From Escherichia phage Mt1B1_P17, in sequence record NC_052662.1: a stretch of 64,000 nt of DNA, one strand, 5' to 3'. The notes under the pieces are model-generated. The model saw only the letters and a program-made list of their open reading frames with translations. It did not search any database and had not been told where the DNA came from. The translations under genes and the position numbers were made by a program. Below, piece after piece: positions 1,229 through 17,156 of the stretch; the stretch's first letter is position 1; each line of letters opens with the position of its first letter.

Positions 1229-1244
1229 CTTGTTTTGTTGTCAA

Positions 1245-1794: not shown

Positions 1795-1803
1795 TGTATA
1801 ATC

Positions 1804-2484: not shown

Positions 2485-2502
2485 GATATGACTCCTAAAT
2501 CA

Positions 2503-2562: not shown

Positions 2563-2867
2563 AGGTAGGATTGTAAAGATTTGATAGTTTATCTCTTTGA
2601 TGTTTTGTTGTTTGATAGATGTTAGCTATCAATATATAGCGGGGTCGTCCGGTGATTATCTTCCCCTGCTTCCAGGTGCCGCCCGTTCAATAAGTATAAC
2701 AAAAAACAGGACAAAAACAAGCCCTGTTTATTTATCTTAAAACCAGTTGCCAACCGTTTCCAATAGGTCACTGACTACCAGGACAACATTGATCAGCACA
2801 TGTTCAACCATGAAGGGGATAAGCGCCAGCGTTGCTACTACGATCCCCATTGTGATGATTACCTTTC

Positions 2868-3158
2868 TCATTGTTGGCGGTTTACGTAAGCTTTACCGTT
2901 TACGGTCATCGGTATGGCCTCAAGGTCTGGATCTTCCTTAAGGTCGCGTGCAAGCTCACCGCAGCGGATACCCTCGAATCCGTGGTATTCTGTCGTGCCG
3001 TCCTGGAAAGTTTTAGCGGCAAGGCATAGGCGATAATTAACGCCGATCCGGTTCACTGCGTTAATATCGGTTAACGTGATGGATTCTGGCAACTCTTTCG
3101 CCATTACAGGCGCGTTAATACCAACAACCAGGGCAACTACTGCGATCATCTTTTTCAT
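2868..3158 (-). CDS. secreted/periplasmic small protein (N-terminal signal peptide MKKMIAVVALVVGINAPVMA)
   Basis: ORF with hydrophobic signal-like N-terminus; 5' hairpin GGGGCGGTAACGCCCC and RBS upstream. Confidence 0.5.
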   Translation of the reverse strand: MKKMIAVVALVVGINAPVMAKELPESITLTDINAVNRIGVNYRLCLAAKTFQDGTTEYHGFEGIRCGELARDLKEDPDLEAIPMTVNGKAYVNRQQ

Positions 3159-3213
3159 GCTTTCTAGCCTCTTCCTATTGCGTTTAATGGGGCGTTACCG
3201 CCCCGCTTATGGT

Positions 3214-3450
3214 TTATTGATTGATGTTATAATGAAAATTATTTTCTTCAATAGCTTTTAAAATAAAAGCCGTGATCGCTTTCGTGTCTACTTGTTCGAA
3301 CGTATCGGAATAGCACCAATAATGATCATCCCCTACTTTCGGCGGGTAAACCTGGACAAGGAGATCGCCACCTGGTTGATCTATAAGCTCAACATGCAAG
3401 CCGGATGATTCAGCGGTTTTAACGGCGTTTAATACTGTTGCAATACTCAT
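3214..3450 (-). CDS. hypothetical early protein (78 aa)
   Basis: ORF; RBS; 5' hairpin GGGGCGGCAACGCCCC upstream. Confidence 0.45.
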   Translation of the reverse strand: MSIATVLNAVKTAESSGLHVELIDQPGGDLLVQVYPPKVGDDHYWCYSDTFEQVDTKAITAFILKAIEENNFHYNINQ

Positions 3451-3494
3451 AATCTTTCCCTTTCTGATGTGGGGCGTTGCCGCCCCTTTGTTGA

Positions 3495-3794
3495 TTAGAT
3501 CGCTGTTTCCAGTAGTTCGGCTAACGTCTTACCGCCTGATAGTTGGTCTAACGTTTGCTCTTCTGGCAAGAAATTAGCTGATATTAAACCGACTTGATTC
3601 CCTTTGTGCCAATTAGCTTGACGGATGATTCCATCCTTTAAGGATTTTACCGCCATTGTGCAACCGTCGCCAAATGATTCATTTTTATGATCCATCACTT
3701 CGTAAGCGCCCAGTTTGCTGCTGTTAGGCACCATTAACGCGAATACATCACCAACAACCAGTTTTTCTACGGTAACAATAGCGATAGTTTCCAT
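3495..3794 (-). CDS. hypothetical early protein (99 aa)
   Basis: ORF; RBS GAGGAAAG; cassette 3813..3869 upstream. Confidence 0.5.
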   Translation of the reverse strand: METIAIVTVEKLVVGDVFALMVPNSSKLGAYEVMDHKNESFGDGCTMAVKSLKDGIIRQANWHKGNQVGLISANFLPEEQTLDQLSGGKTLAELLETAI

Positions 3795-3812
3795 TTTACT
3801 TTCCTCATTATT

Positions 3813-3869
3813 GGCGGCACCATTGCCGCCCTACGTGGTAAATATTAGCACACTGGCGATCTGTGTCAA
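3813..3869 (-). promoter_or_regulatory. early promoter cassette: TTGACA-N16-TAATAT plus 5' stem-loop GGCGGCAATGGTGCCGCC
   Basis: -35 at 3864..3869, -10 at 3842..3847, hairpin 3813..3830 (minus-strand reading). Confidence 0.6.
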
Positions 3870-3875
3870 TACTTT

Positions 3876-4262
3876 TTATTCAATATAAATCAAATTATCT
3901 TCACCAATGTAAGCCGACACGTTCGGCATAAACTTAGCTGCATTGGTTAGGCGGTTCGCCGTGTTAGTGGTGTATATCTCAGGGCGATCCCAAAAGCCTA
4001 CGCCGTGACCGTTACGGGTAAAATGTAAATCATTCCCGATCTGGTTGGCTGTTGCGCCGTCGCTCATTGCCTCAGAGATAGCGGCAAGATTAGCATTAAT
4101 AAAGGCTGTTACATCCTGGGCGATCCGTTCGTCCGCGCTAGGAGAAAAATCATAATCGTCTAAGTTATCAATAAAATTACCTTCATGATCCCTTGCTGAT
4201 TCAGCAAAAATAAAGGCTTCTTTATAGCCGTTGATGATTTCAATAATGATTTCTGTTTTCAT
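3876..4262 (-). CDS. hypothetical early protein (128 aa)
   Basis: ORF; start overlaps stop of upstream gene. Confidence 0.5.
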   Translation of the reverse strand: MKTEIIIEIINGYKEAFIFAESARDHEGNFIDNLDDYDFSPSADERIAQDVTAFINANLAAISEAMSDGATANQIGNDLHFTRNGHGVGFWDRPEIYTTNTANRLTNAAKFMPNVSAYIGEDNLIYIE

Positions 4263-4483
4263 GCTGTACGCTCGACAATAATAATAGTTTGCGGGATCTC
4301 GTTTTCTACTACTAACAAGGCTTTTTTCTGTGTGATAGATATTTTAACACGTTGTAAAGTAGCGGTAAAATCTTTCATTTCATTATGCGCGGACTTCGTG
4401 CAATGCCAGATCTCAGGCTTACCAACTTGTAAGCCGCGTAAAAATTCCGTTTTGCCTGTTTTGTTCGTGATCATTTGTTTCAC
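4259..4483 (-). CDS. hypothetical early protein (74 aa)
   Basis: ORF in operon-like arrangement. Confidence 0.4.
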   Translation of the reverse strand: MKQMITNKTGKTEFLRGLQVGKPEIWHCTKSAHNEMKDFTATLQRVKISITQKKALLVVENEIPQTIIIVERTA

Positions 4484-4484
4484 C

Positions 4485-4589
4485 TTAACCGATACCGTGG
4501 GAAGATAGGATCATATTAGCCATAGTTGCAACTACTCCAACCGATAACGCTAGGCCAACCACTGCAACCGTGAAAATTTTCTCTAACAT
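4485..4589 (-). CDS. small hydrophobic (membrane) protein, about 35 aa
   Basis: Start moved to internal Met (MLEKIF...) downstream of the 5' hairpin; the track ORF 4485..4688 translates the hairpin. Confidence 0.35.
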   Translation of the reverse strand: MLEKIFTVAVVGLALSVGVVATMANMILSSHGIG

Positions 4590-4672
4590 GATTCTACCCT
4601 CATTAATGGGCGTTGCACCATTGCCCCGCCCTACGTAATACACTTTACTAGATAACAAATTATTGTCAAGCT

Positions 4673-4810
4673 TTATTTTACTTCCCAAACGGAAAATTCG
4701 CTGCCTGTTGGGATCATTTTTTTAATCTTGTTTGCTGCCGCTACCAGGTCAACGGCTTGTACTGTAATAATATAACCAATTGTCGAGGCTGTTGCGTTGA
4801 AAGTTTTCAT
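4673..4810 (-). CDS. small protein, about 45 aa (below track cut-off)
   Basis: ATG at 4810 with RBS AAAGGGCAA and 5' hairpin GGCGGGATTAATCCCGCC upstream. Confidence 0.4.
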   Translation of the reverse strand: MKTFNATASTIGYIITVQAVDLVAAANKIKKMIPTGSEFSVWEVK

Positions 4811-4854
4811 TATATTGCCCTTTAATACAGGCGGGATTAATCCCGCCTTGTTGA

Positions 4855-5025
4855 TTACTCTTCATTGTCGCCGTTATAGTATTCAATGCCGTTTTCATCG
4901 GTTACGGTGATGTTAACGCCACCGATAGCAACACGATCACGGGCAAACGTCATAGCTTCATTTAAATCTTCAGACCAAAAAATATTGTGACCTTTGCGCG
5001 ATACATAAAACATAGTCGGGATCAT
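4855..5025 (-). CDS. hypothetical early protein, about 56 aa
   Basis: Track ORF N-terminus (YHIGRRNGPP) is translated hairpin; start set to internal Met. Confidence 0.4.
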   Translation of the reverse strand: MIPTMFYVSRKGHNIFWSEDLNEAMTFARDRVAIGGVNITVTDENGIEYYNGDNEE

Positions 5026-5110
5026 GATTTGTTTCTCTTCTGTTATGAGCGGTGGACCATTCCGCCGCCCTATGTGGTAAACTTTACTACGTTGTTTGCG
5101 TGCTGTCAAA

Positions 5111-5395
5111 TTATTTTTTAATGTTTTGCCCTACAAAATTGATCACTTCCTTAAGCTGTCTCTCTGTCATGATCGTACCTGGTAACTCTTCTTTAATTTC
5201 TTCCGGTAAATAGATATTACCGCGCCAGGTTAACAAACAACCGTTTTGATCTTCGCAGATAGAATAAGAAAACATCCACTCGCAATCATTTTCAAGCTCC
5301 CAAAAACACAAAAAGTCTTCTTTCCCTAAGTTTTCAACGGTTAAACATAATCCGCGACGTGCTGCATAATTAGTTAGGCTTTTTGTAATTTTCAT
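5111..5395 (-). CDS. hypothetical early protein (94 aa)
   Basis: ORF; RBS; cassette 5418..5472 upstream. Confidence 0.5.
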   Translation of the reverse strand: MKITKSLTNYAARRGLCLTVENLGKEDFLCFWELENDCEWMFSYSICEDQNGCLLTWRGNIYLPEEIKEELPGTIMTERQLKEVINFVGQNIKK

Positions 5396-5417
5396 GATTT
5401 TTCTCTCTTCTTGTGAG

Positions 5418-5472
5418 CGGCACCATTGCCGCCCTACAAGATATATATTATCAGACTAGGCGGACTTGTCAA
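5418..5472 (-). promoter_or_regulatory. early promoter cassette: TTGACA-N16-TAATAT plus 5' stem-loop GCGGCAATGGTGCCGC
   Basis: -35 at 5467..5472, -10 at 5445..5450, hairpin 5418..5433. Confidence 0.6.
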
Positions 5473-5473
5473 A

Positions 5474-5584
5474 CTATTTTTTCTTTTTCTTTGCTTCCAA
5501 CCGTCTAAGGTTACGGCTTGACTTATTGCGCAAGGCGCTTAGATCGTCGTACCCTTTCCATGCTTGCATATCTTTCGGATTCAT
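5474..5584 (-). CDS. small basic protein, about 36 aa (MNPKDMQAWKG...KKKKK)
   Basis: Internal Met with strong RBS AAGGGGGAT; weak call. Confidence 0.3.
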   Translation of the reverse strand: MNPKDMQAWKGYDDLSALRNKSSRNLRRLEAKKKKK

Positions 5585-5594
5585 GTTATCCCCC

Positions 5595-5873
5595 TTAACG
5601 ATTATAAACATTATGGATGGCTTCAAAGGCAAGATGACCATAAGCCGCCAAATCGGGATTGATCCAAGCGTTATCCAACATCGTTTCAAGGACTGTGGAA
5701 TCATCGTATAAAGCATCATAGAAATCTGCACGGATGATCGTTTCAATGTCGTCCGGTGTTAGTTTGTCGTTCAACTTGCACACTGTTTCAACGTCAACAC
5801 CAATTTTCCAATTTTGTAAATTAGTGGTTAACATTGTTTTCATTTCTTCGGTTGTTAATTTAACGATGGTCAT
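5595..5873 (-). CDS. hypothetical early protein (92 aa)
   Basis: ORF; RBS AGAAGAGAG; TTGACA promoter and 5' hairpin GGGGCGACAAGCGCCCC upstream. Confidence 0.5.
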   Translation of the reverse strand: MTIVKLTTEEMKTMLTTNLQNWKIGVDVETVCKLNDKLTPDDIETIIRADFYDALYDDSTVLETMLDNAWINPDLAAYGHLAFEAIHNVYNR

Positions 5874-5953
5874 GATTTTTTCTCTCTTCTGTTAGGCGGG
5901 GCGCTTGTCGCCCCTATGTGATACATCTTATCAGGTTGATTCAGCTTGTCAAA

Positions 5954-6115
5954 CTATTTGTTAGCCGGATTATATGCCAGGACCGCGCCACTTGCTTTCA
6001 CGCTTTCCGCTTCATAGTTGCGCAGATCGTTTTCTGTAAGATTGAGCGCGATCACTTCCTCGATCTCAACGCCAGCGGCAAGGGCGATCTCTTTGATAAT
6101 ATCTGTTGTTTTCAT
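5954..6115 (-). CDS. hypothetical small protein, about 53 aa
   Basis: Internal Met (MKTTDIIKEI) with RBS AAGGTG. Confidence 0.4.
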   Translation of the reverse strand: MKTTDIIKEIALAAGVEIEEVIALNLTENDLRNYEAESVKASGAVLAYNPANK

Positions 6116-6127
6116 GGTGTGCACCTT

Positions 6128-6247
6128 ATAAGATGATTGATAAGATAGTGACAACGAAAGCGATTATACTGATGGCAAATGTCATCTTTTTACCTTCGGA
6201 TACTGCCGGATTCTCTACCGTGTATTCTACTGTGTACTTGCTCATCG
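6128..6247 (-). CDS. small membrane protein, about 39 aa (C-terminal hydrophobic helix)
   Basis: ATG at 6247 with RBS; TTGCAA-N18-TATTTA promoter and 5' hairpin upstream. Confidence 0.4.
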
Positions 6248-6343
6248 TGTAATCCTCTCGTTTGCTTTGGGAACTATTCCCGCCGCCCTATGAATTAAAT
6301 ATACACTATCTCAAAATGATTGCAAGCCTTTTTCTAAATTATT

Positions 6344-6628
6344 TTATGCAGTAAACAAACCATCATTTACAACGGCGGCGATGATCTCCCGTGCCATTGA
6401 TTCAGGGAAAGGGGCGCTATAGTCCTGGCTTGTCTCATCGGTATCGGTGATCCAATGATAAGCTAACGAGTAAAAGCCTTTACTAACTGTTTTCAGTGAG
6501 ATGATGATCACTCGGTCAAGCTTATTGGTGAATGTTGCCGTTAATGTGTTACCCTCCTGCGTCATGTTGGACAAGTAAGCGAGATCATTAATCAGGGAAA
6601 ACATTAGCACGGTGTTAGCTTTACTCAT
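6344..6628 (-). CDS. hypothetical early protein, about 94 aa
   Basis: Start moved to internal Met (MSKANTV) after the hairpin; RBS GAGGATG. Confidence 0.5.
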   Translation of the reverse strand: MSKANTVLMFSLINDLAYLSNMTQEGNTLTATFTNKLDRVIIISLKTVSKGFYSLAYHWITDTDETSQDYSAPFPESMAREIIAAVVNDGLFTA

Positions 6629-6699
6629 GATTGCATCCTCAAAGGGGCGCGGCACCATTGCCGCCCTACACGATAACTATAACACAATGTAAAACAGGA

Positions 6700-6906
6700 T
6701 CAACCTTTATTTTTCCACGGTGTCAGCTTGTTAATCATTGGTGATAAATAGCGTTTACCAACGTAAAACAGTACGCCAACTGATGCAACGGCGGCGACCT
6801 CATGCAAGGAGGAAGGACGCGCGGTGTCATAGTAGGTACCAATAATAGCAATAGCGGCTACTGCGGCAATGTCTGTAATAATTTTTTCTTGTTTTGTTGT
6901 GATCAT
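6700..6906 (-). CDS. small membrane protein (68 aa)
   Basis: Hydrophobic stretches; RBS; 5' hairpin GGCGGGGAATAGTTCCCCACC upstream. Confidence 0.45.
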   Translation of the reverse strand: MITTKQEKIITDIAAVAAIAIIGTYYDTARPSSLHEVAAVASVGVLFYVGKRYLSPMINKLTPWKNKG

Positions 6907-6991
6907 AATATTTACCTTTTTGTATGGTGGGGAACTATTCCCCGCCTGATGTAATACAGTTTAACAGGTCCGGTTATGGTGTCAACCACTT

Positions 6992-7177
6992 TTAAAGATA
7001 TTTTATGCTAATGACGTTTTCAGGTTTTACCTTGTTATGATGTGCATCAACATAGATCAAACCATCGTCAGAAAAGCCCAGGATCACACCCTGCGCGATA
7101 AAACCATACGCATCACGGTAACGCACGGCTATTTTTAATGTTGCGTTATAGGCTGTTTTAAGCTCGCTTAAAGTCAT
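6992..7177 (-). CDS. hypothetical early protein (61 aa)
   Basis: ORF; RBS GAGGATAAACA. Confidence 0.45.
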   Translation of the reverse strand: MTLSELKTAYNATLKIAVRYRDAYGFIAQGVILGFSDDGLIYVDAHHNKVKPENVISIKYL

Positions 7178-7206
7178 CTTTGTTTATCCTCTACATATAA
7201 AAAGAA

Positions 7207-7225
7207 AGGGCGCTTGGTGCGCCCT
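7207..7225 (-). terminator. terminator hairpin copy 3 (AGGGCGCTTGGTGCGCCCT)
   Basis: Identical to 1776..1794; T-tract on minus strand. Confidence 0.45.
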
Positions 7226-7233
7226 TGTTATGT

Positions 7234-7380
7234 TAATCCTCTAAATCCATCCAATTATATTTGTCACTCTTCCCGCGCTTTGTTTTATTGCGCTTGTCGC
7301 CTTTGCGGATCACTTCCTCGTTCCAGGCCTTGCGGATCTTGGAAGATTGAATTTTTTCTGCGCGATTAGATGTATTCATT
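7234..7380 (-). CDS. small basic protein, about 48 aa (K/R-rich)
   Basis: ATG at 7380; RBS GAGGAAAC; TTGACA-N17-TAAATT promoter and 5' hairpin upstream. Confidence 0.4.
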
Positions 7381-7458
7381 TTGTTTCCTCTTCATATGAG
7401 CGGCACCATTGCCGCTATATTGTTAATTTAAACTGTTTTGTAAAATTGTCAAGGTTTA

Positions 7459-7812
7459 TCATTCATAAGAGCAAGCAAGGATCACGCCTGCAATATAAAG
7501 CCAATAATTTTCCCTTTCTCGTTGGATTTTATCATCGCTGCTATTCTCTTTAATGTATCCCCAGGATGTTAACAAACGATCAATTTCCCAATATTCGAAA
7601 GCTATATTAATATCTGATGGCAAGCCTTGTAACCATGATGCAAGTGCTTTAACAATACTATAATTAAAACGTGATTGATTATCAGGGTACCAGTACTCGG
7701 AATTAAAACGGCGCATCAATTCCGCGATCTTCTCTTTTTCGGTTGTAATACCATAATCATTAAAATCGATAGCGGCAAGGATGTACTCTTTAATTGCATT
7801 TTGTGCTTTCAT
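7459..7812 (-). CDS. hypothetical early protein (117 aa)
   Basis: ORF; RBS; cassette 7831..7887 upstream. Confidence 0.5.
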   Translation of the reverse strand: MKAQNAIKEYILAAIDFNDYGITTEKEKIAELMRRFNSEYWYPDNQSRFNYSIVKALASWLQGLPSDINIAFEYWEIDRLLTSWGYIKENSSDDKIQRERENYWLYIAGVILACSYE

Positions 7813-7830
7813 GGTCTTTCTCTCTTTTTA

Positions 7831-7887
7831 GCGGGAACTATTCCCGCCCTACGTGTAACAGTTTACTGAAAATTAAATCCGTGTCAA
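7831..7887 (-). promoter_or_regulatory. early promoter cassette: TTGACA-N16-TAAACT plus 5' stem-loop GCGGGAATAGTTCCCGC
   Basis: -35 at 7882..7887, -10 at 7860..7865, hairpin 7831..7847. Confidence 0.6.
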
Positions 7888-7890
7888 GCT

Positions 7891-8112
7891 TTATTTTGTT
7901 ACTACCATTTGGTACCCTGTTTCAATGTTAGTAAATACTGTTATCCCGTCCTGGCGTTCACTCATTAGCATACAAGGCGCTAACATCCTTTCTACTGCCT
8001 TGCACTCATTGTAAACGGCGGTTATGTCTCCTGCGGCCTTGTCTTCTGTGGTGAATGTATCGTTTATGTAAACTTGACCAGCGACAACGGCGACAATAGC
8101 GAAAGTGATCAT
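7891..8112 (-). CDS. hypothetical protein (73 aa), hydrophobic N-terminus
   Basis: ORF with RBS. Confidence 0.4.
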   Translation of the reverse strand: MITFAIVAVVAGQVYINDTFTTEDKAAGDITAVYNECKAVERMLAPCMLMSERQDGITVFTNIETGYQMVVTK

Positions 8113-8185
8113 GATGTCTTTCTCTTTATGTGTTTCTATTAGTTGATATTACAGCAATTCGCAGATTAGTTTTTAGCAATTCGTG

Positions 8186-8404
8186 CTATTTACTCATAAC
8201 AGTATCGAAAACAAATTTTTCTTTGTTGTCAAAGCTCACGTATCCGATTCGACCACGCAAGCCGCAAGTAGTGCCGTATTCGTAACCGTCAAGACCTTTA
8301 ACCTTCCAATCCACGCCCATTAAAACCGCATTATATTTCTGACCAACTACAAACGCGCCACCAGTTGATTCAATGCAAACAACTTTAATTTTACGGATTG
8401 CCAT
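8186..8404 (-). CDS. hypothetical early protein (72 aa)
   Basis: ORF; 5' hairpin TATAGCGCC-TTACAAT-GGGCGCTATA upstream. Confidence 0.45.
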   Translation of the reverse strand: MAIRKIKVVCIESTGGAFVVGQKYNAVLMGVDWKVKGLDGYEYGTTCGLRGRIGYVSFDNKEKFVFDTVMSK

Positions 8405-8485
8405 TTTCTTTCTCTCTTTCTGGTGATTGGTTTCTCTTCTCTATAGCGCCCATTGTAAGGCGCTATAACGAAAAGTCAACGATTA

Positions 8486-8650
8486 TTTTTTAAGGCTTAA
8501 AGTACCTAACTTGTCAGCATGACGTAGACCAGGGAAGATCCATTTTCCTGATTCATCTTTTACAGGGGCTTTAAACGTAGCGCCCAGGTTGGCGGCGTTA
8601 ACTTTACGGGCAACGTTGCGAGCGGCTTCACGGGTAGCGAAAGTGATCAT
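8486..8650 (-). CDS. small protein, about 54 aa (below track cut-off)
   Basis: ATG at 8650; RBS GAAGAGGAAAAC; TTGCAA-N16-TAAACT promoter and 5' hairpin upstream. Confidence 0.4.
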
Positions 8651-8741
8651 GGTGTTTTCCTCTTCTCTTTGTTAGGCGGTGGACCATTCCGCCGCCTTGA
8701 TGTAATACAGTTTACTTTATTTTTGCAGTATTGCAAGCGTT

Positions 8742-8954
8742 TTATGAAATAATCGTCAAAGTAAAATTGTAATCACCTGATTGGTACAATACTTTATCAC
8801 CGAAAGTTCCAACACGTTTAACATTGCAATATATACCCATAACACTTTTTACATCTTTGATATTCTTCACGCCTGTAATATCTTTATTAAAATGATCGTG
8901 ATCAGAAAATAAAACTTGACTTGCATTTTTTAACAGTGTACGGATATTAGCCAT
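8742..8954 (-). CDS. hypothetical early protein (70 aa)
   Basis: ORF; TTGACA-N16-TAAACT promoter and 5' hairpin upstream. Confidence 0.45.
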   Translation of the reverse strand: MANIRTLLKNASQVLFSDHDHFNKDITGVKNIKDVKSVMGIYCNVKRVGTFGDKVLYQSGDYNFTLTIIS

Positions 8955-9044
8955 CGTGATAATCTCTCTTCTGTTGTGAGCGGCACTATTGCCGCCCTAC
9001 GTAATACAGTTTACTCTTTTTCTTTCCCGTGTCAACAATCTTTT

Positions 9045-9272
9045 TCAGATTAATTCATCCAGGCATAACAGGCGATCAACGTTGAGATCTGTTAGGCTGA
9101 TGGTTGGCACCTGGTAGGATTCGATGTACTCGACGCTTGCATATTCCCCAAAATTAGCAACAGCCCACTTATTCAAGATCTCACATACATCATTAATCTT
9201 TTTGTTTGTTACAACTGCTACAACCTGGGAATAGCCAACGGTGCCGGATACGCGAACAATATTGATAGCCAT
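9045..9272 (-). CDS. hypothetical early protein (75 aa)
   Basis: ORF; promoter/hairpin cassette upstream. Confidence 0.45.
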   Translation of the reverse strand: MAINIVRVSGTVGYSQVVAVVTNKKINDVCEILNKWAVANFGEYASVEYIESYQVPTISLTDLNVDRLLCLDELI

Positions 9273-9363
9273 AATCTTTAATCTCTCTGTTGTGAGCGGG
9301 AAACCATTTCCCGCCTTATGTGATACATCTTACACTAATTTTAAACGTTGTCAACTGTTTTTA

Positions 9364-9603
9364 TTACATTCCAACCATCGCGGCGCGGATCGCTGTAGTG
9401 CTATACTTGAAACCGTCTGGAGTTTTATCTTGTCCAGTTTGTTCCAGGAATAACATCATATCACGGGCAGCATCATTACGATTAGTATTAGCGGCGATAA
9501 ATTCTTTCGCCAACCGATATAATGATTCGTCATTATTAATCCAAAGGCTTACATTCCAGTGAGTTTTATTTTTGTGACCTAAGAACATTTTTGATTTAGC
9601 CAT
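9364..9603 (-). CDS. hypothetical early protein (79 aa)
   Basis: ORF; promoter/hairpin cassette upstream. Confidence 0.45.
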   Translation of the reverse strand: MAKSKMFLGHKNKTHWNVSLWINNDESLYRLAKEFIAANTNRNDAARDMMLFLEQTGQDKTPDGFKYSTTAIRAAMVGM

Positions 9604-9692
9604 GATATTAATCTCTTTTTCAGTGAGGCGGGAAGTATTCCCGCTCTCTATGTAATACAGTTTACTCTTTTTATTCGTGCTGTCAATGCTTT

Positions 9693-10058
9693 TTATAAAT
9701 CTTTTTTACGTTTAACATCACTCGCATGACTGTATACAGTGATCCCATTGTCACGGCAAAAACGGGAAAGATACGCGCCGCGTGAAAACTCTTTACCTTC
9801 CATATTAATAACCTTGCTAAATTCTTCCAGGGCGACGGTATCAAAATGATCACCATAGCCATATTGAAACGGAACGTTAACCACCTCGATCAGTTTACCG
9901 CCGATCTCAACGTCAACCATTAAAGAAAAATATGTGTTACCGTAGGACTGTTGAAACCAGCGACGGGCGCTAATGTGCACCGCTTCAATGCTGGATAATT
10001 CAATTTTAGCCGTGTTAGCCAGGGTAGCATAAGCGGAAACATTGATATTAATAGCCAT
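9693..10058 (-). CDS. hypothetical early protein (121 aa)
   Basis: ORF; TTGACA-N17-CATAAT promoter and 5' hairpin upstream. Confidence 0.5.
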   Translation of the reverse strand: MAININVSAYATLANTAKIELSSIEAVHISARRWFQQSYGNTYFSLMVDVEIGGKLIEVVNVPFQYGYGDHFDTVALEEFSKVINMEGKEFSRGAYLSRFCRDNGITVYSHASDVKRKKDL

Positions 10059-10155
10059 GATGATAATCTCTCTTTTTGGTTAGTGGGAAGTATTCCCGAT
10101 AAAAGTTATTATGCTTATACTATCACTCATTGTCAATAGTATAAGACTAAAACTT

Positions 10156-10335
10156 TTAACGATAATCGTTATAGGCTTTATTGACCTGGCGAATGTAACA
10201 TTCGAAAGCAAGATCAATGTATTCGTATTCACGCACATAATCACCATAGGTCACTACATACATTTTTAAAGTTTCCTCATAAGCCAGGAGGATCGAATCT
10301 AAACCTATAATCTCAGTTTTTGCAATGATAGCCAT
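10156..10335 (-). CDS. small protein, about 59 aa (below track cut-off)
   Basis: ATG at 10335; RBS; TTGACA-N16-TATAGT promoter and hairpin GGCGGCAATGGTGCCGCC upstream. Confidence 0.4.
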   Translation of the reverse strand: MAIIAKTEIIGLDSILLAYEETLKMYVVTYGDYVREYEYIDLAFECYIRQVNKAYNDYR

Positions 10336-10418
10336 GATGTTAACCTTTTATTGTTGGCGGCACCATTGCCGCCCTACGTGATAAACTATACCAGAAGTTT
10401 AAACAGTGTCAACCGTTT

Positions 10419-10781
10419 TTATTCGTAAATTTTACCGCTTTCGGCCCATACCATAACGCGGCGCATACTATCCCAAGTGTTTTGATCCAGGTTTAAGCCG
10501 TGCAACTCTTCGGTACTTCCCAGACCAGGTACCGCTTTGTTGTAAGTCGCATATAAGCGCCCTTGATACTCATACACCAGAGTAAGATCCGTTTGAATCA
10601 TCTTTTTAAGCATAGCATTAAGCATCATATTAGCGGCATGTTGATCACGTTTTAGCGGTAACATATCAATAAGGGCGCGATAAGCTGAAACATGGATATC
10701 AACCGTTTCACGTGGTAAATTTTTCATATCATCGCGGAAAGATACCAGATTAAACATGATAGTATTGATTTGCTTGCTCAT
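10419..10781 (-). CDS. hypothetical early protein (120 aa)
   Basis: ORF; cassette 10803..10863 upstream. Confidence 0.5.
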   Translation of the reverse strand: MSKQINTIMFNLVSFRDDMKNLPRETVDIHVSAYRALIDMLPLKRDQHAANMMLNAMLKKMIQTDLTLVYEYQGRLYATYNKAVPGLGSTEELHGLNLDQNTWDSMRRVMVWAESGKIYE

Positions 10782-10802
10782 TGTGTTACCCTTTTTTGTT
10801 TT

Positions 10803-10863
10803 GGCGGGGAAGTATTCCGCCGCCCTATGTGATACATCTTATCAGATTAAAAAACGTTGTCAA
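10803..10863 (-). promoter_or_regulatory. early promoter cassette: TTGACA-N16-TAAGAT plus 5' stem-loop
   Basis: -35 at 10858..10863, -10 at 10836..10841, hairpin 10803..10824. Confidence 0.6.
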
Positions 10864-10871
10864 GAATATTT

Positions 10872-10967
10872 TTAGAAAATAATAGCCGCTACTACAACCC
10901 AAAATGGAACGGCTAGAATGATAGCGTTAATCGTTCCAACCGTCAAGCTATTTTCTTTATTAATCAT
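10872..10967 (-). CDS. very small membrane protein, about 31 aa
   Basis: ATG at 10967; RBS AAGAGGCTT; TTGACA-N17-TAATAT promoter and hairpin upstream; hydrophobic C-terminal half. Confidence 0.35.
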   Translation of the reverse strand: MINKENSLTVGTINAIILAVPFWVVVAAIIF

Positions 10968-11049
10968 TGTAAGCCTCTTGCATAATTTCACTATGAGCGG
11001 CACCATTGCCGCCCTACGTGGTAAATATTATGCCAGTGGCGGCGATATG

Positions 11050-11616
11050 TCAAAGACTATTTTCAAAGTTTTCTAGTGCTATCCTTTTTTCTTCCTCTGT
11101 CGGCTGATAATCAGGAAAAGCATCAACACACAACAACGGCGGGATCTCTTCGTACTCTTCCTCTTCCGTTGTCTCCTCGTCTTCCTCCTGGGCTATGGCT
11201 GCAATTTTGGCTAATTTTCTTTCGGCTTGAATCAATTTACCATCAAGTACGTTTTTTGCCATGTTGTAAGCGGTCCAGGTGATGCGCTTACTTTCCAGAG
11301 CTTCATCAAGCGCCGCTATCTTGCTGGGGTATTCATCCAGGACACGAAAAGCCGGATCAACTTTGTACAAAGGATTATCTTTCGCGCCGTCGCTCGCATC
11401 TTCTGCACTGGATAAATCAGCGTTACCATTTGCCAGCCAGCCAGGGCGCACATAACGCGCTTTTACGTTGCCGTTACTACGTGCTAATCTGTTACCTATT
11501 TGCTCACCGCTATATCCCGTGGATTCATCGATAAGATGATCGGGAATGATGCGCGGATCATCTGCTTCATGTTTTACCCAAGACTGGATCACATATTCGC
11601 GGCCCATATTAACCAC
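11050..11616 (-). CDS. hypothetical acidic protein (188 aa; E/D-rich C-terminus)
   Basis: ORF; RBS AAAGGTGG; start overlaps stop of upstream gene. Confidence 0.5.
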   Translation of the reverse strand: MVNMGREYVIQSWVKHEADDPRIIPDHLIDESTGYSGEQIGNRLARSNGNVKARYVRPGWLANGNADLSSAEDASDGAKDNPLYKVDPAFRVLDEYPSKIAALDEALESKRITWTAYNMAKNVLDGKLIQAERKLAKIAAIAQEEDEETTEEEEYEEIPPLLCVDAFPDYQPTEEEKRIALENFENSL

Positions 11617-11866
11617 CTTTTTTCAACAATTGGCATACTTTAAAAAGACTTGCTGAATCCTTGCAAGGGTAGAAAGATGTACGATAGTCACGTACGCCAA
11701 CCTTGCGGATCTCGATGTTCTCGCATGTTGTTTGATCAAAGATATTTATTTCATCACGCCCCCTTATATAAACATAGTGGGGATGTATTAACGCATATTT
11801 TGCTAATCTGTAAAAAGCGTTATCTTTGAACGCGATCACGTGACCTTTTAATTTGATGTAAAACAT
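11609..11866 (-). CDS. hypothetical early protein (85 aa)
   Basis: ORF; RBS AAGGTGG; TTGACA-N16-TAATAT promoter and 5' hairpin upstream. Confidence 0.45.
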   Translation of the reverse strand: MFYIKLKGHVIAFKDNAFYRLAKYALIHPHYVYIRGRDEINIFDQTTCENIEIRKVGVRDYRTSFYPCKDSASLFKVCQLLKKGG

Positions 11867-11942
11867 TCTACCACCTTACAAATAGCGGGAACTATTCCCG
11901 CTTTATGTAACATATTAACAAATTATTCGTTAATGTCAAGCC

Positions 11943-12215
11943 TTAAAGCAAAAACGCTACATCTTGCGCTTTTAGTGTAGTATCAACCATTTTCGGGCTT
12001 TTATAATCAACAAAGCGCGCGGTTTTTTCAATAGCGAAACCGAGATAATCTTGCTTGTTGAAATTACATTCTTTCTTAAATGTTTCCCGTGCAATGGCAA
12101 TCGCTGCGTCCAGGGATAAACGCCCGTCAATATTGATATTAGCGAAAGATCCGCCACCGCTCATAGGTTTACCAGTGGTGCCAGCTACGATCATTGTTGC
12201 GCTATATGATGCCAT
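11943..12215 (-). CDS. hypothetical early protein, about 90 aa
   Basis: Track ORF N-terminus (YHIGRRNGPA) is translated hairpin; start set to internal Met MASYSAT. Confidence 0.45.
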   Translation of the reverse strand: MASYSATMIVAGTTGKPMSGGGSFANINIDGRLSLDAAIAIARETFKKECNFNKQDYLGFAIEKTARFVDYKSPKMVDTTLKAQDVAFLL

Positions 12216-12304
12216 GATGATAATCTCTCTGTTGTGAGCGGCTGGACCATTCCGCCGCCCTATGTGATACATCTTATCAGGTTGTTGTTTGTTGTCAATA
12301 CTTT

Positions 12305-12502
12305 TTATTCTATCCCTGCAATTTGATTAACGCGCTTGCATTTTGTAGCGTGCTGGTCTTCTGTAATGACTCCCATTTCTAACAGGGAATCAATGAAAGA
12401 TAAAACCGTTTCATGATCATCCTGGGGATGACTGAACTCAGTAAAACCGTTTACTATTACGTTGATTTGTCCAGCTTTCGCCACAATATGCAATGTTGCC
12501 AT
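12305..12502 (-). CDS. hypothetical early protein (65 aa)
   Basis: ORF; RBS; TTGACG-N17-TAGTAT promoter about 150 nt upstream. Confidence 0.4.
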   Translation of the reverse strand: MATLHIVAKAGQINVIVNGFTEFSHPQDDHETVLSFIDSLLEMGVITEDQHATKCKRVNQIAGIE

Positions 12503-12775: not shown

Positions 12776-13042
12776 ATGACAAATACTACATTACACCTTA
12801 TGCACTCATTGGGCTGGCAAGGCGGAACGGTGCACCAGGTAGCAAGCGCAACGGGCTTAAAGGTTGAAACAGTTCTCAACCTGGGCGATCATAAGGTGGA
12901 AGAGATAGATCATTTTGATACGTTCGCAAATGGTTATCTATGGGCTTGCAGTGGCGGCGGGGAAAGCAAGATACCACCAGGGGCGCGGGGCGATATGTAT
13001 TTTTGGTTAGGTGTCCTATCCTGGCAAGAAAACAAAAAATAA
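12776..13042 (+). CDS. hypothetical protein (88 aa), plus strand inside a minus-strand block
   Basis: ORF with weak RBS; GC-rich surroundings; uncertain. Confidence 0.3.
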   Translation: MTNTTLHLMHSLGWQGGTVHQVASATGLKVETVLNLGDHKVEEIDHFDTFANGYLWACSGGGESKIPPGARGDMYFWLGVLSWQENKK

Positions 13043-13044
13043 TC

Positions 13045-13073
13045 TTGACAAGCCCAGGGATCGGGCTTATACT
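13045..13073 (+). promoter_or_regulatory. near-consensus sigma70 promoter TTGACA-N17-TATACT with no downstream ORF
   Basis: -35 at 13045..13050, -10 at 13068..13073; followed by about 200 nt of GC-rich untranslated sequence. Confidence 0.5.
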
Positions 13074-13292
13074 GTTTTACATACAGAAGAGGAAGCGCCA
13101 CCCCACGGCGTAAAGGCGGGGCTAACATACCAGGGGGCACTGGTTGGAAGGTTGATCGCCGGTAGGCTGGGCGCTATATATTTGTAAAGAAATGTAAAGA
13201 TAAAATAATCACTTGCTTTCCTGGCTGGATCTGTTATTCTTATTACATGGCGAGGGGACACGGGAGCGCGAGACAAACACCGCCCCTGCGCG

Positions 13293-13407
13293 TCATTCTC
13301 TAAATGAGAATGATTATCATTTACTTTATTAAATAAGAATCAATCTCATTTATAAACTTAAATGCGAATCATTATCATTTGCATTTCCACATGAGAACTC
13401 TTCTCAT
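13293..13407. promoter_or_regulatory. cluster of four Fur-box-like imperfect palindromes
   Basis: ATGAGAATGATTATCATT (13304..13321), AGAATCAATCTCATT (13335..13350), ATGCGAATCATTATCATTTGCAT (13362..13384), ATGAGAA-CTC-TTCTCAT (13391..13407); read directly. Confidence 0.45.
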
Positions 13408-13427
13408 TCCCACCTGCATAAATTTTT

Positions 13428-13606
13428 GTAAACTTTAAATTTTGGTTTTGTACTTTCATTTTTGTAAAAGCAAAAAAACTTTAAATACTGTGGGCGCGCA
13501 AAATTTTTAAAATTTTCCTTGACTTTTGAGTTTTGTTTTGTATCTAACATTTTAAGATAATTTTCCTAAACTTTAAATTTTGGTTTTCAACTTTCACTTT
13601 TGTAAA
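13428..13606. repeat. two about 40-bp direct repeats (AAACTTTAAATTTTGGTTTTG/CAACTTTCA...TTTTGTAAA) in AT-rich intergenic DNA
   Basis: Copies at 13428..13468 and 13566..13606; extra AAACTTTAAAT-type and TTTGAGAT motifs nearby. Confidence 0.5.
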
Positions 13607-13857
13607 TTCTTAAAAAGTTTAAATAATTTGAGGAATTTTTGAGATAATAGGTAGTGGGAATTTGAGATAACCTTTAATCTTGTTGGTAAACCTTCAGGAA
13701 CCCACCTAGATCAAATCTTAGCAATGCAAACTGAAAAAGATAAGTGTTCGTATAGGACAAAATAATAGGCTCTCTACGGTGCTGTAGGAGCCTTATTTCT
13801 GTGCTACAAAGTGACGCCTTTGTTCTAAAAATGAAAAAAGTTAAAATATCACAAATA

Positions 13858-14391
13858 TCATCTTTGCGGTATTTTGTCTGGGAAAAGTATTTCTATCAGT
13901 TTGTTATGATATTTACCTAAAAGATTCTGTCCTTTCCAGGTGGCAGGGTTTAGCACCCCTGGTTCATACATCCCCATTCCAATTCCGTATACCTTATCGT
14001 AAGGACTTGCTTCAACAAATGTTTTGTATTGATATAGACGTAAATCGGCATACAAGTCTGGATTCTGTACATACTTCAAGCATAAACCTCGCATAACAAT
14101 ACGCTCACGATTCTCTTCCCATATTTTGTTATCGAAACCTGCTACTGCCCTACCCATACGTTTGTAATAAGCTTGTATCTTCTCATCTTCTCGTTTTAAG
14201 CTATGAGTCAGAATAGCTTGTGCGTTGTTGTGATCGTTAAAGAGCAAAGCTTTACGCCACATCATATATTGTTCTACACAGTTAAATGTTTCATTGTAAC
14301 CTGGTTCGGTTTCTGTAAAGGGTGCAATATACCAATTACTAAACACATCTTTATGTGAAAAGAAGAATACATATTCATCAGTTATTCTCAT
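13858..14391 (-). CDS. NADAR / YbiA-like (DUF1768-type) domain protein
   Basis: Motifs FFF...FSNWY, ...MMWRKALLFND, GRAVAGFD, LVEASPYD..YGIG match the NADAR family pattern from memory; not confirmed by search. Confidence 0.55.
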   Translation of the reverse strand: MRITDEYVFFFSHKDVFSNWYIAPFTETEPGYNETFNCVEQYMMWRKALLFNDHNNAQAILTHSLKREDEKIQAYYKRMGRAVAGFDNKIWEENRERIVMRGLCLKYVQNPDLYADLRLYQYKTFVEASPYDKVYGIGMGMYEPGVLNPATWKGQNLLGKYHNKLIEILFPDKIPQR

Positions 14392-14567
14392 TTTTTCATG
14401 CCTCCTAAGACTTCAGCTTGCCCGTCTTGAAAAGCTTTCATCAGAACTATCTTAAGATTGACTTCCAAACGTTCTTCATCCTCTCTATAACAATCCAACA
14501 CTGCTTTAAGTTCATCATAGTGGTTCAGAATAGGTTTAAAGATTTCATGATCTGCTAAACGTGCCAT
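14388..14567 (-). CDS. hypothetical protein, about 59 aa
   Basis: Internal Met with RBS AAAGGAG. Confidence 0.4.
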   Translation of the reverse strand: MARLADHEIFKPILNHYDELKAVLDCYREDEERLEVNLKIVLMKAFQDGQAEVLGGMKK

Positions 14568-14580
14568 AGTTTCTCCTTTG

Positions 14581-14946
14581 TTAGTCCATCCACCAGTAGC
14601 CATAAACTGCGTCTGCGTCGATGAGTTTGTGTTTGTTGTTCCGCATGTAGTCTAAGATAAGTAGACGTTTATTGTATCTGGAGAGATTATGACCCTCTTT
14701 TCCGCCATAGTCAAAATATTTTGCAAGATCTTTGCACTCAAACAAAATTAGTTCGGGAGTTTCTTCACACTGGTCTGTCTGGTACACTTGACGAATGATC
14801 ATGTATACATCATCGTCTTCCGCTAAATGCTCTACTGGTCCACATCCAGCAGGAACAAATTCATAGTCCCATCTGATCAGATGTTTCTCTACTGCTTCAA
14901 AGAAGTCCATTCTTTCGTTGCGCATAATTTGAACGTCAACTAACAT
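14581..14946 (-). CDS. hypothetical protein (121 aa)
   Basis: ORF; RBS CAGGAGGAAAC. Confidence 0.45.
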   Translation of the reverse strand: MLVDVQIMRNERMDFFEAVEKHLIRWDYEFVPAGCGPVEHLAEDDDVYMIIRQVYQTDQCEETPELILFECKDLAKYFDYGGKEGHNLSRYNKRLLILDYMRNNKHKLIDADAVYGYWWMD

Positions 14947-15947
14947 GTTTCCTCCTGTAATATTCCACCATAAAGTTTATAAATGTTTTGTATTGATGCC
15001 AGACAAGATAGCTCCACTGTTTCTGTGTAGCCGTCTGGCATAGCATATTTGCTCACTGCTTCTGTGTCTAACACCTTTTTGCAATACTTTTCTGAATTTT
15101 TGCACTGCTTCACAGTGGGGAACTGCCACACTTGAACTTGTCTCATAGTAAACACATTGCGGCTATTCTGTTCTTTGATACGGCGATCACTACTATTGGC
15201 AATACCAAACTTCAGTGCACAAAGAATACCATCTTCATCATAAATATGATTAATGTAACATTGTTGTTGGTTTTGGCCCCCGCACTGCGGACACCCACTC
15301 CCCTTATGTAGCAAACCATCTGCACGCCCTATCTGTTCCCCGTGCTCCTTACATCCATATTTAAACTTACCCATTGTTGAAGGTTTACCGATCCATCCTA
15401 CCCATATATATCCTCTCCTTTCTACTTCCTTTCTTGTTCTATAGGTGGTCTGATCCTCTGTGTATTTGTAACTTGTAGAACAGCGGCAAGGGAGACACCC
15501 ACGTTTAAGATGACTTCCGGTAGCATAGAATTTACCATCACACACCCCAGCTTCCACATATTCATCATGAGAGCAAACAGGACATTCAACCATCCATACT
15601 ATATCACACCCTTTACGTTCCCCTGTATTGGTGAAAATAGTGCCTTCCTTAAATTTACCTACCTTCATAAAATCTTGTATGTGTTGCTGGTCTGGAATAG
15701 TGATAGCTTTGCTTCTCTTTTTCGAACGTTCCCTGTAGGCGCACTTAGGACAACCTCGACCATCTTTAAAACTGTGAAACGTTGTAGTATTCCATTCATG
15801 ACCATGCTCACAACGATTGATCATCTTCGTATGCACACCTTTATCTTCTCCATACGTGCCGAGAATGGTAATCCCTTTAGCCTCAGCTATCGGCTTACAT
15901 TCTTCCATATATGTTTCAATACTCTTCTTTACTGACATATCTAACAA
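14940..15947 (-). CDS. Cys-rich (multiple CxxC zinc-ribbon-like) protein with C-terminal T5orf172-type domain
   Basis: C-terminal FGIANSSDRRIKEQN...PDGYTET motif shared with CDS 20722..21708; several CxxC pairs in N-terminal half. Confidence 0.5.
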   Translation of the reverse strand: MLDMSVKKSIETYMEECKPIAEAKGITILGTYGEDKGVHTKMINRCEHGHEWNTTTFHSFKDGRGCPKCAYRERSKKRSKAITIPDQQHIQDFMKVGKFKEGTIFTNTGERKGCDIVWMVECPVCSHDEYVEAGVCDGKFYATGSHLKRGCLPCRCSTSYKYTEDQTTYRTRKEVERRGYIWVGWIGKPSTMGKFKYGCKEHGEQIGRADGLLHKGSGCPQCGGQNQQQCYINHIYDEDGILCALKFGIANSSDRRIKEQNSRNVFTMRQVQVWQFPTVKQCKNSEKYCKKVLDTEAVSKYAMPDGYTETVELSCLASIQNIYKLYGGILQEETC

Positions 15948-15967
15948 TTCTCTTCCTATTAAACTGA

Positions 15968-15998
15968 AATCAATATAACAAAACCCGCCGAAGCGGGT
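15968..15998 (-). terminator. intrinsic terminator AAACCCGC-TTCG-GCGGGTTT plus T-tract
   Basis: Perfect 8-bp stem; minus-strand U-tract TTTTGTTATATT. Confidence 0.55.
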
Positions 15999-16016
15999 TT
16001 AGCTATTTGTGCTGTA

Positions 16017-17156
16017 TCAGAATACGCTACCCAGTGTGGTAGATCGCTGCGTTACAGGCTCCAGCACCACTCGCAGAGTGTTTCCTGGTGTAGTGCTCAT
16101 CACCAGGATCTTACCACCTTCAATCAGATCACAAGTTAGACCATCAGCAGTTGCACATAGATCAATATGTGGGTCGCCATCTTCGTCTAGGATAACATAA
16201 CTATTGGTTTCCATTGCTTCCACTTCATCATCTTTCAAGCTTTGTAGATAGATGTTCAAGGAACAAGCACCCGACAAAAACTTAGTAGGGGTAAAGTCGT
16301 GCCAGTTATTGATCCAATTCACCTTCAAGGTTTTGCCATTAGCTACAATAGAAGCCACATTCCATTTAGCATCATTGCCTAAAGAAATACCCATCATTTC
16401 AAGACATTCTTTAAAAGTCATTTTTGGATAGAAATTCAATTCTTCTACAATGCCTTGAATAACATCGAAAGACAACTCTGTGCTAACATCCCATAAACGT
16501 TGGAAGTTATCTACGTGTTTTTTATTTACCAAGTTCTTATCCAAGTAATCTAACATAGTTTCACTAGACAGTTTATCGTAATTGAAACTGTAGTAGATAC
16601 GACTAGGACGGTTTACAAAATATTCCGAGATATAGCCACTATTTTTAGTGAGGATGTAAAGTTTATTCCCACTTCCTGTTCCATCCAACAAGGTCAACAG
16701 TGCTTCCTGATCTTCTTTCTTAGCGTACACTTTATCAAATTCGTCAAATAAAACAACAGCACGATCTGTAATTTTACTCATAAATTCTAAGAAGCCAGCA
16801 TCTGTGTAAGGCTGTGTAACCAAAATGGTTGGAATACCTAAACCTTCTGTGGACATTAGAGACATGCTAATCAGTTTAGCTAACATCGTCTTACCACTGC
16901 CTTTTGTCCCTGTCAGTAACACCCCAGTATTTTTACCTTCTTTACTACGACGAGCAAATGTTTTAATAACATGTGCGGCGCGATCTTTAGTTTCCCCATA
17001 AAGAGTGTTCGGAAGAGAGAAACTTTCACCACGCACTAAAGAGTAGTTACCGTGCGGATCGCAGTTGACAACCCAAACTCCAGCAGGAAGTTTATTAGCT
17101 TCAACACCATATTCCTTATTTACAACAGCCACATCTCCAAAAATAGTGTATTTCAT
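16017..17156 (-). CDS. AAA-type P-loop ATPase
   Basis: Walker A GTKGSGKT and Walker B VVLFDEFDK. Confidence 0.6.
   Translation of the reverse strand: MKYTIFGDVAVVNKEYGVEANKLPAGVWVVNCDPHGNYSLVRGESFSLPNTLYGETKDRAAHVIKTFARRSKEGKNTGVLLTGTKGSGKTMLAKLISMSLMSTEGLGIPTILVTQPYTDAGFLEFMSKITDRAVVLFDEFDKVYAKKEDQEALLTLLDGTGSGNKLYILTKNSGYISEYFVNRPSRIYYSFNYDKLSSETMLDYLDKNLVNKKHVDNFQRLWDVSTELSFDVIQGIVEELNFYPKMTFKECLEMMGISLGNDAKWNVASIVANGKTLKVNWINNWHDFTPTKFLSGACSLNIYLQSLKDDEVEAMETNSYVILDEDGDPHIDLCATADGLTCDLIEGGKILVMSTTPGNTLRVVLEPVTQRSTTLGSVF

Follow-up and report, generated by a model that had tools for sequence, protein, structure and literature searches.

The stretch of Escherichia phage Mt1B1_P17 analysed here (NC_052662.1; 64,000 nucleotides, referred to as a whole as the window) carries two long non-coding regions, 1–1240 and 13043–13857, with a block of small genes between them, and in these regions lie seven palindromes of 19–21 bp with the consensus AAATGAGAATnATTCTCATTT. 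By their motif these palindromes are Fur boxes, that is, predicted binding sites for the host iron regulator Fur. Four of them form an array, with 21-bp cores (13302–13322, 13331–13351, 13360–13380 and 13389–13409, from a repeat search) that stand in register at a start-to-start distance of 29 bp; two more (56–76 and 235–255) lie within the direct terminal repeat (DTR), and a further one at 977–997 (Table 1). A sequence-only reading of the window had pointed to four adjacent palindromes, and both strings that it quoted are present, ATGAGAATGATTATCATT at 13304–13321 and ATGCGAATCATTATCATTTGCAT at 13362–13384, as are the two extra copies that it placed at 52–77 and 237–255. The seventh box, at 977–997, had been missed, and two facts go beyond that reading, namely that the two upstream copies are inside the terminal repeat and that the array is held in common with the injection stop signal (iss) region of phage T5.

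The window comes from a phAPEC8-like myovirus (Phapecoctavirus), of whose genome it forms the terminal 64 kb, and it has 97–99% identity to genomes of this genus (virulent myoviruses of about 150 kb resembling phAPEC8 and ESCO13). Judged from the deposited sequences, window position 1 is the physical genome end, because the Schickermooser record has an exact 329-bp repeat, one copy per end, both of which are matched by window 1–332, because the authors of that record published a terminal repeat of 328 bp (Korf et al., PMC6563267), and because several independent records stop at the same base as position 1, each with a second copy of the repeat. The block of small genes, delimited from open reading frames (ORFs) and the ESCO13/phAPEC8 annotation, has a box cluster on either side. 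A TTGACA-like sigma-70 promoter was found at seven of the ten gene starts inspected there, six of which also have a conserved leader hairpin, and by these promoters the block is therefore an early block read by host RNA polymerase.

Table 1. Boxes and other features of the window, with scores from the E. coli Fur matrix unless stated otherwise
Feature	Position	Strand	Details
Direct terminal repeat (DTR)	1–332		matches both end copies of Schickermooser
Box A1, AATGAGAATAATTATCATT	56–81		main site 57–75, 28.1 bits; overlapping site 63–81 (+6 bp), 17.1 bits; in DTR
Box A2, TATGAGAATGATTATTATT	235–255		site start 236, 23.6 bits (24.7 bits with the phage matrix); in DTR
Box A3, GATGATAATGGTTATCATT	977–997		site start 978, 21.1 bits; non-coding, between DTR and last early gene
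Block of small early genes	1245–12502	-	ORFs and ESCO13/phAPEC8 annotation
Small ORF	12776–13042	+	left edge of region
Promoter P1, TTGACA-17-TATACT	13045–13073	+	rightward; 11 of 12 consensus positions
GC-rich P1 transcript, candidate non-coding RNA	13080–13185	+	near-invariant across Stephanstirmvirinae, Seunavirus and Certrevirus
Promoter P2 (TTGCTT-16-TGtTATTCT, extended -10, 13213–13240) and leader hairpin	13213–13291	+	read from sequence
Half-site TCATTCTC, then box B1, AATGAGAATGATTATCATT (13303–13321)	13293–13322		27.8 bits
Box B2, AATAAGAATCAATCTCATT	13331–13351		site start 13332, 20.4 bits; 29 bp from B1
Box B3, AATGCGAATCATTATCATT	13360–13385		site start 13361, 25.3 bits; overlapping +6-bp site 13367–13385, 17.7 bits
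Box B4, CATGAGAACTCTTCTCATT	13389–13409		site start 13390, 13.4 bits, weakest of the four; 29 bp from B3
AT-rich direct repeats	13421–13630		two 72-nt copies 138 bp apart and three 33-nt copies
GAGATAA pair, two copies of TTTGAGATAA	13638–13670	+	repeat search
Terminator-like hairpin, AGGCTCTCTACGGTGCTGTAGGAGCCT	13767–13793		read by eye, T-rich tails on both strands; not flagged by scan

Match to the Fur box of Escherichia coli

Phage and host sites were compared in both directions, a matrix made from six window sites only being run over 50.5 kb of E. coli K-12 DNA fetched around classical Fur targets, and a matrix made from K-12 Fur promoters over the phage. With the phage matrix, all 13 matches of at least 6 bits in the K-12 DNA fall in Fur-regulated promoter regions, 12 of them inside 11 defined Fur-promoter regions that make up 5% of the DNA scanned and the thirteenth upstream of fecA; ryhB (22.0 bits), fecI (20.2 bits), fhuE, fhuA, cirA, entC and exbB are among the matches. 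In the other direction, unseeded palindromic expectation maximization on 12 K-12 Fur-regulated promoter regions yielded AATGATAATnATTATCATT, which is the known single-dimer Fur model (compare PMC2189734), and the 11 best sites from these 12 regions make up the E. coli Fur matrix. Six of the seven phage sites score 20.4–28.1 bits with this matrix, within or above the range of the fhuA, ryhB, fecI, cirA and entC sites, and A1 exceeds every one of the 11 training sites; the real E. coli sites, scored leave-one-out, reach 12.8–24.2 bits (mean 18.8). Secondary sites offset by 6 bp overlap A1 and B3, and another lies at 13309–13327 (11.6 bits); overlapping sites with this offset are the arrangement described by the Fur dimer cluster rule (PMC2189734). 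For the motif compiled from 32 distinct sites of 8 phages, the correlation with that of E. coli is r = 0.96, and r = 0.90 for the information profiles, with coinciding weak positions, but these values are partly circular since the 32 sites were picked with the Fur matrix, whereas the reverse scan of K-12 is not circular.

Taken as a whole, the phage boxes are the same 19-bp palindrome as the E. coli Fur box (19-bp operator; 7-1-7 core TGATAATnATTATCA; M9 model; Chen et al., 2007, PMC2189734), which they resemble in their weak positions, their 6-bp-shifted overlapping sites and their scores. They differ from it in forming an array of up to four sites with 29-bp phasing, off the promoter hexamers, in belonging to a virulent genome, where they occupy the terminal repeat and the edge of the early region, and in having G at half-site position -4.

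That the palindromes arose by chance in non-coding DNA, which is AT-rich in these regions (GC 0.34–0.36), is an explanation that the following results refute and to which we give practically no weight. With the consensus TGAGAATnATTCTCA and up to three mismatches there are 13 matches, against 5.5 ± 2.0 in shuffled sequence, where none of 100 shuffles reached 13, and the six matches with up to two mismatches are every one a reported site. Six sites of at least 20 bits stand against about 0.04–0.06 expected in the 64-kb window and about 0.003 expected in its non-coding DNA; when the 2,055 bp of non-coding DNA were simulated with a Markov model, even a single site of this strength appeared in just 6 of 2000 runs. 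Moreover, when the 150,742-bp closest complete relative was scanned with the matrix of the six window sites, the motif was confined to the same two clusters, the best further match in the 150-kb genome being 17.6 bits with the E. coli matrix, and the boxes are conserved across phage families while the spacers between them diverge. The resemblance to Fur boxes put forward in the sequence-only reading is borne out by the matrix scores, which lie above the best natural sites and far above those of composition-matched simulations.

The same reading had also suggested iron-responsive control of the classical operator kind, and here we could not follow it. No box overlaps the -35 or -10 hexamer of a conserved promoter, the array boxes lying about 45–160 bp downstream of P2, and the lone stretch with operator geometry (964–1117) is not conserved; because of these two findings, classical Fur repression of the early genes is not supported by the sequence. 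In that stretch, with TATAAT at 964–969 beside the box (not conserved), we considered box 977–997 as a classical operator of a 32-amino-acid (aa) ORF (1019–1117) and rejected it, given that the -10 element, the Shine–Dalgarno sequence and the ORF are not conserved, whereas the box is. The ORF has a strong Shine–Dalgarno sequence in the window but a stop codon in Schickermooser.

The array in related phages and in T5

A sensitive blastn search with 13230–13480 matched 385 phage records. Two to five boxes of 20–28 bits occupy the equivalent non-coding region of tuntematon, alia (Justusliebigvirus), phiWec189 (an rV5-like Vequintavirus), SalP219 (Seunavirus) and CR8 (Certrevirus), and most of them keep the 29-bp phasing; arrays phased in this way are conserved in tuntematon, SalP219, CR8, phiWec189 and phiR2-01. 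The boxes of the relatives vary in sequence yet stay palindromic, while the spacers diverge, and the box at 977–997 is invariant in three Phapecoctavirus genomes (including phAPEC8 and Schickermooser) in which its flanks vary. The layout of B1, a half-site followed by a full site, recurs in chee24, and the tuntematon counterpart of B4 scores 17.5 bits. A separate observation concerns phiWec189 (LC739538.1), where a 148-bp terminal overlap begins exactly at one Fur-like box and ends within another; it may be a short DTR or an assembly artefact from the repeated boxes, and was not used as evidence.

In T5-like siphoviruses the same boxes are found inside the left terminal repeat. Those of T5 span 9552–9716 of NC_005859, within the annotated iss (9140–10149), and in AY587007 palindrome G is the box at 9577–9595 (27.8 bits) and palindrome I the box at 9612–9630 (22.9 bits), in direct repeats C3 and C4. 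No site of at least 14 bits occurs between 11.5 and 111.4 kb of T5, and the array is confined to the terminal repeat. Secondary sites offset by 6 bp lie at T5 9662, 9697 and 9703. Around B3, window 13357–13387 and T5 9652–9682 share 97% identity over 31 bp. The first-step-transfer shear point calculated by Davison, 9618 in AY587007 coordinates (bioRxiv 10.1101/866236), falls within the box at 9612–9630, and the 7.9% nick lies 30 bp further on. The order of elements is also common to the window and T5, the array being followed by family-specific direct repeats and these by two copies of GAGATAA (window 13638 and 13661; T5 about 10119–10148, TTGAGATAA and TTTGAGATAG, just inside the end of the left terminal repeat). 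T5 papers describe the elements as repeats or palindromes with no assigned role, or as sites that a nuclease might cleave, and in the searchable literature we found no description of the boxes as being those palindromes, no link of the T5 palindromes to Fur, and none of Fur to first-step transfer or to phAPEC8. Since palindromes G and I of T5 are the same module, we infer that the module found at the T5 first-step-transfer boundary and in the present phage may be an ancient and portable cis element through which a host factor is recruited.

Two smaller parallels with T5 were noted. The octamer CCCTGCGC, following GGCGAG and a hairpin, lies directly left of the array at window 13284–13291, and at T5 AY587007 9661–9668 the same octamer follows GGCGAG and palindrome J, directly right of the array, where it is annotated as the site of the 7.9% single-strand nick; Vequintavirinae do not conserve the octamer. 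T5 also has a moderately strong Fur-like site inside dmp (ACTGATAATCATTATCATC, NC_005859 231–249, 16.6 bits), 231 bp from the left end, a distance similar to that of window box 236–254, which may be a coincidence.

Compared with the T5 iss (Repeat Region 3, with direct repeats C and palindromes E–J; Davison, 10.1101/866236), the window has the same boxes in the same element order, in an array that lies about 8–9% of the genome from an end, beside early genes transcribed toward that end. It differs in having no DnaA boxes, no IRD'-spacer-IRC' element, no A1/A2 homologues and no 10-kb terminal repeat, and in its extra boxes inside a short DTR. These likenesses suggest a T5-type injection stop or second-step-transfer element, in which about 13.3 kb (about 9%) with the early genes would enter first, transfer would pause at the array and the rest would follow, with Fur or another box binder as the trans-acting pause factor; such a pause would be compatible with Fur binding, but we consider it unlikely. 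In its favour, besides the position of the shear point and the nick, the four-box array is 13.3 kb from the DTR end, which is about 9% of 150 kb, and the intervening small early genes are transcribed toward that physical end, as in T5. Restriction sites also differ between the first 13.3 kb and the rest (137 kb) of the related genome, with 0 versus 33 for EcoRI, 1 versus 58 for EcoRV and 0 versus 8 for EcoKI, a depletion that is weak and uncorrected for multiple testing; the depletion of 6-bp palindromes overall is alike in the two parts (0.79 in the first 13.3 kb and 0.88 in the rest). T5 first-step DNA is likewise not known to contain EcoRI sites.

The machinery that accompanies the T5 element was not recovered. 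When all 17 proteins of the T5 terminal repeat, A1, A2 and dmp among them, were compared by tblastn with the window and the whole related genome, no match fell below E = 0.04, a search of limited sensitivity for small proteins, whose distant homologues would escape it. The sequence TTWTNCACA, used for the paired DnaA boxes of an IRD'-spacer-IRC' element, has five matches in the window, which is below chance, and none in the non-coding regions. The DTR measures only 329 bp against about 10 kb for the T5 terminal repeat, and it does not include the four-box cluster. The searchable literature has no report of two-step transfer in these myoviruses, and a cytoplasmic protein bound to internal DNA has no obvious means to halt DNA that is still outside. 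The further proposal that the T5-type iss has its missing trans-acting factor in host Fur, which would load onto the emerging array and help to arrest or time DNA transfer, and that phAPEC8- and rV5-like myoviruses also transfer their DNA in two steps, with the first 13 kb or so as the first-step segment, appears to us distinctly unlikely.

The lack of DnaA boxes in the non-coding regions also bears on a replication origin, a role that the sequence-only reading had mentioned and that gains little support here, or on a terminase recognition site, at either of which the boxes would be accessory sites for a host factor, like IHF at lambda cos. Two promoters are directed into the AT-rich direct-repeat region, the two DTR boundaries each have a box close by, at 56 and 75 bp, and in T5 about 500 bp separate the array from the end of the terminal repeat, all of which would fit. 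Nevertheless, the cumulative GC skew has its minimum and turn at about 20 kb and not at the array, no initiator gene is found among the neighbours, the four-box cluster and the DTR are 13 kb apart, and the origins of T5 map near the genome centre (10.1101/866236), such that we hold this explanation to be highly improbable.

Candidate binder and predicted function

As to what binds the boxes, the sequence-only reading had named host Fur or a phage protein; the first of these is favoured by our analysis and the second disfavoured. No Fur homologue was detected in the phage by tblastn with an E. coli Fur query, and searches of the 10 ORFs flanking the array against PHROGs and Pfam found no helix–turn–helix, other DNA-binding or Fur-family domain; the matches were limited to NADAR, a CapR-like endonuclease, an AAA ATPase and families without an assigned function. 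When all stop-to-stop ORFs of at least 60 aa of the related genome were compared with T5 1–111.4 kb, the proteins in common were only NrdA/B/D, PhoH, a Sir2-like protein, a phosphatase, a SleB-like protein and one endonuclease, and no DNA-binding protein common to this phage and the box-carrying T5-like phages was detected. Because phage families that all infect Enterobacterales and have no detectable DNA-binding protein in common share the element, we argue for a conserved host protein, which to judge by the motif would be Fur, over a phage protein as the binder.

The alternative that a dimeric protein of the phage, or a host protein other than Fur, happens to have a Fur-like specificity and that the boxes are its operators or assembly sites is doubtful. 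The phage consensus AATGAGAAT has G at position -4 and is more uniform than natural Fur sites, most of the early proteins are without known function, and distant homologues of small proteins escape tblastn. Set against this, the phage matrix selects only Fur-regulated promoters in K-12, position -4 is exactly the low-information position of the Fur motif, and T5-like and phAPEC8-like phages have in common only nucleotide-metabolism enzymes and one endonuclease.

We favour host Fur occupancy plus a boundary role, and put the probability of the two taken together at roughly 0.55; our confidence in any specific downstream function is lower. The palindromes would be very high-affinity sites for host Fur, occupied by metal-loaded Fur dimers upon DNA entry, and two dimers could bind where a +6-bp site overlaps (A1 and B3), whereas the four 29-bp-phased sites (13302–13409) could carry about 110 bp of near-continuous Fur coat. 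Considering that the sites bracket the early block of about 13 kb and lie off the conserved promoter hexamers, we suggest that the Fur–DNA complexes, at the array and at the three sites near the end, may mark the borders of the first-entering early block as a boundary element rather than act as a classical operator. Such a boundary might be a roadblock to read-through from P1 and P2, or it might shield the early promoters from the AT-rich repeats or DNA ends as a barrier, as at ftnA, where distal Fur sites of E. coli block H-NS nucleation (Nandal et al., 2010, as reviewed in PMC3788343). The two systems are alike in that several Fur sites lie off the promoter hexamers beside AT-rich DNA and a barrier action is proposed, and they differ in that the phage sites are much nearer the consensus and regularly phased; the parallel is an inferred one only.

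Several points weigh against Fur occupancy with a boundary role. The whole case for Fur rests on sequence similarity, and at half-site position -4, the low-information position of the Fur motif and the sole difference between the two motifs, the phage sites have G (64% G) where E. coli prefers T, so that a different protein of similar specificity could be the binder. The 29-bp spacing sets successive sites on different helical faces and is not known from the promoters of the Fur regulon, the boundary role is drawn from geometry alone, and an iron-dependent regulator would be an unexpected one for a role that is purely structural. Fur is also not essential for T5, which forms plaques on fur mutants.

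Fur binding could, in principle, also serve to remove Fur from the host regulon, hundreds of genome copies with seven sites each acting as a decoy that titrates Fur, derepresses iron uptake and feeds the phage ribonucleotide reductases. The site scores are above all natural sites tested, NrdA/B and NrdD homologues occur in this phage and in T5, and, as the Fur titration assay demonstrates, Fur boxes on a multicopy plasmid suffice to derepress the regulon. A decoy would leave unexplained why the boxes are placed strictly at the terminus and beside the early block, as well as the 29-bp phasing; moreover, T5 degrades host DNA within minutes, so that host genes are not inducible there, and extra FhuA would harm T5 progeny. 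We therefore rate the decoy as improbable.

Fur boxes are a known kind of site, whereas phased, consensus-grade arrays at the terminal repeat and early border of virulent phages are, as read from these genomes, a new context for them. For about 60 years the T5 iss has been a cis element without an explanation, and central palindromes that are consensus-grade Fur boxes provide a concrete host candidate that can be tested cheaply; in at least three further groups of large virulent phages the same module stands at the terminus and early border. If Fur does occupy these sites, strictly lytic phages would, unusually, be making use of the host iron regulator, which would bear on rV5-, phAPEC8- and T5-type therapeutic phages in iron-limited tissue as compared with the iron-replete gut. 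Should Fur bind without any role in DNA entry, the array would still be a conserved host-factor boundary element in well-used phage families; should Fur gate transfer, two-step delivery gated by an iron sensor would be widespread among large virulent enterobacterial phages.

Surroundings of the boxes

The non-coding region that holds the array begins with P1, a strong sigma-70 promoter; alia, SalP219 and CR8 have the same hexamers around a spacer of different sequence. Its transcript (about 100 nt) has no Rfam match, and Rfam (gathering and E-value thresholds) and tRNA scans gave nothing relevant; RNAalifold gave 24 pairs with 1 compensatory change, and we regard the transcript as a candidate conserved phage non-coding RNA or DNA element. 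P2, a predicted promoter, is kept in its arrangement in alia, SalP219, CR8 and phiWec189 (both subfamilies), and its layout of promoter and leader hairpin resembles that of the early-gene promoters, the hairpin containing the conserved GAGACAAACACCG. It points rightward into the array, which begins about 45 nt past the presumed P2 start, and no ORF lies downstream. To the right of the array, relatives have different, family-specific direct repeats at the same place, and T5 has DRD repeats there; motifs similar to the TTTGAGATAA pair were also seen in SalP219, CR8 and alia. The terminator-like hairpin ends the non-coding region.

Within the early block, the leader-hairpin sequence of the early genes is GTAGGGCGGCAATGGTGCCGCC (for example upstream of 10781, 10335 and 2484), and TGATACATCTTATCA, found three times (5919, 10830 and 12265), is the reverse complement of the -10/leader segment of the promoters at 12265 and 10830. 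Between the DTR and the last early gene, window 330–1240 comprises 0.9 kb of AT-rich (GC 0.34), non-coding DNA with no conserved ORF, packed with short repeats such as ATTATTGC and TGCTAATGAT. The first 13.3 kb of the related genome are enriched in GATC (7.4 versus 4.3 per kb), and the whole genome is without BamHI, PstI and SalI sites.

Right of the array (13858–17156, minus strand) follow genes for a NADAR-domain protein, which some records label as GTP cyclohydrolase II, for a CapR-homology/HNH-like endonuclease and for an AAA ATPase. The ORF of the endonuclease has 335 aa and a TTG start in the window and 486 aa in ESCO13. Finally, the record closest to the window over positions 1–1300 (MG065650.1, 99% identity) was deposited as 'UNVERIFIED: Campylobacter phage B15'. 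It is a Phapecoctavirus, and several further 'Campylobacter phage' records match as rV5-like; these host labels are probably wrong.

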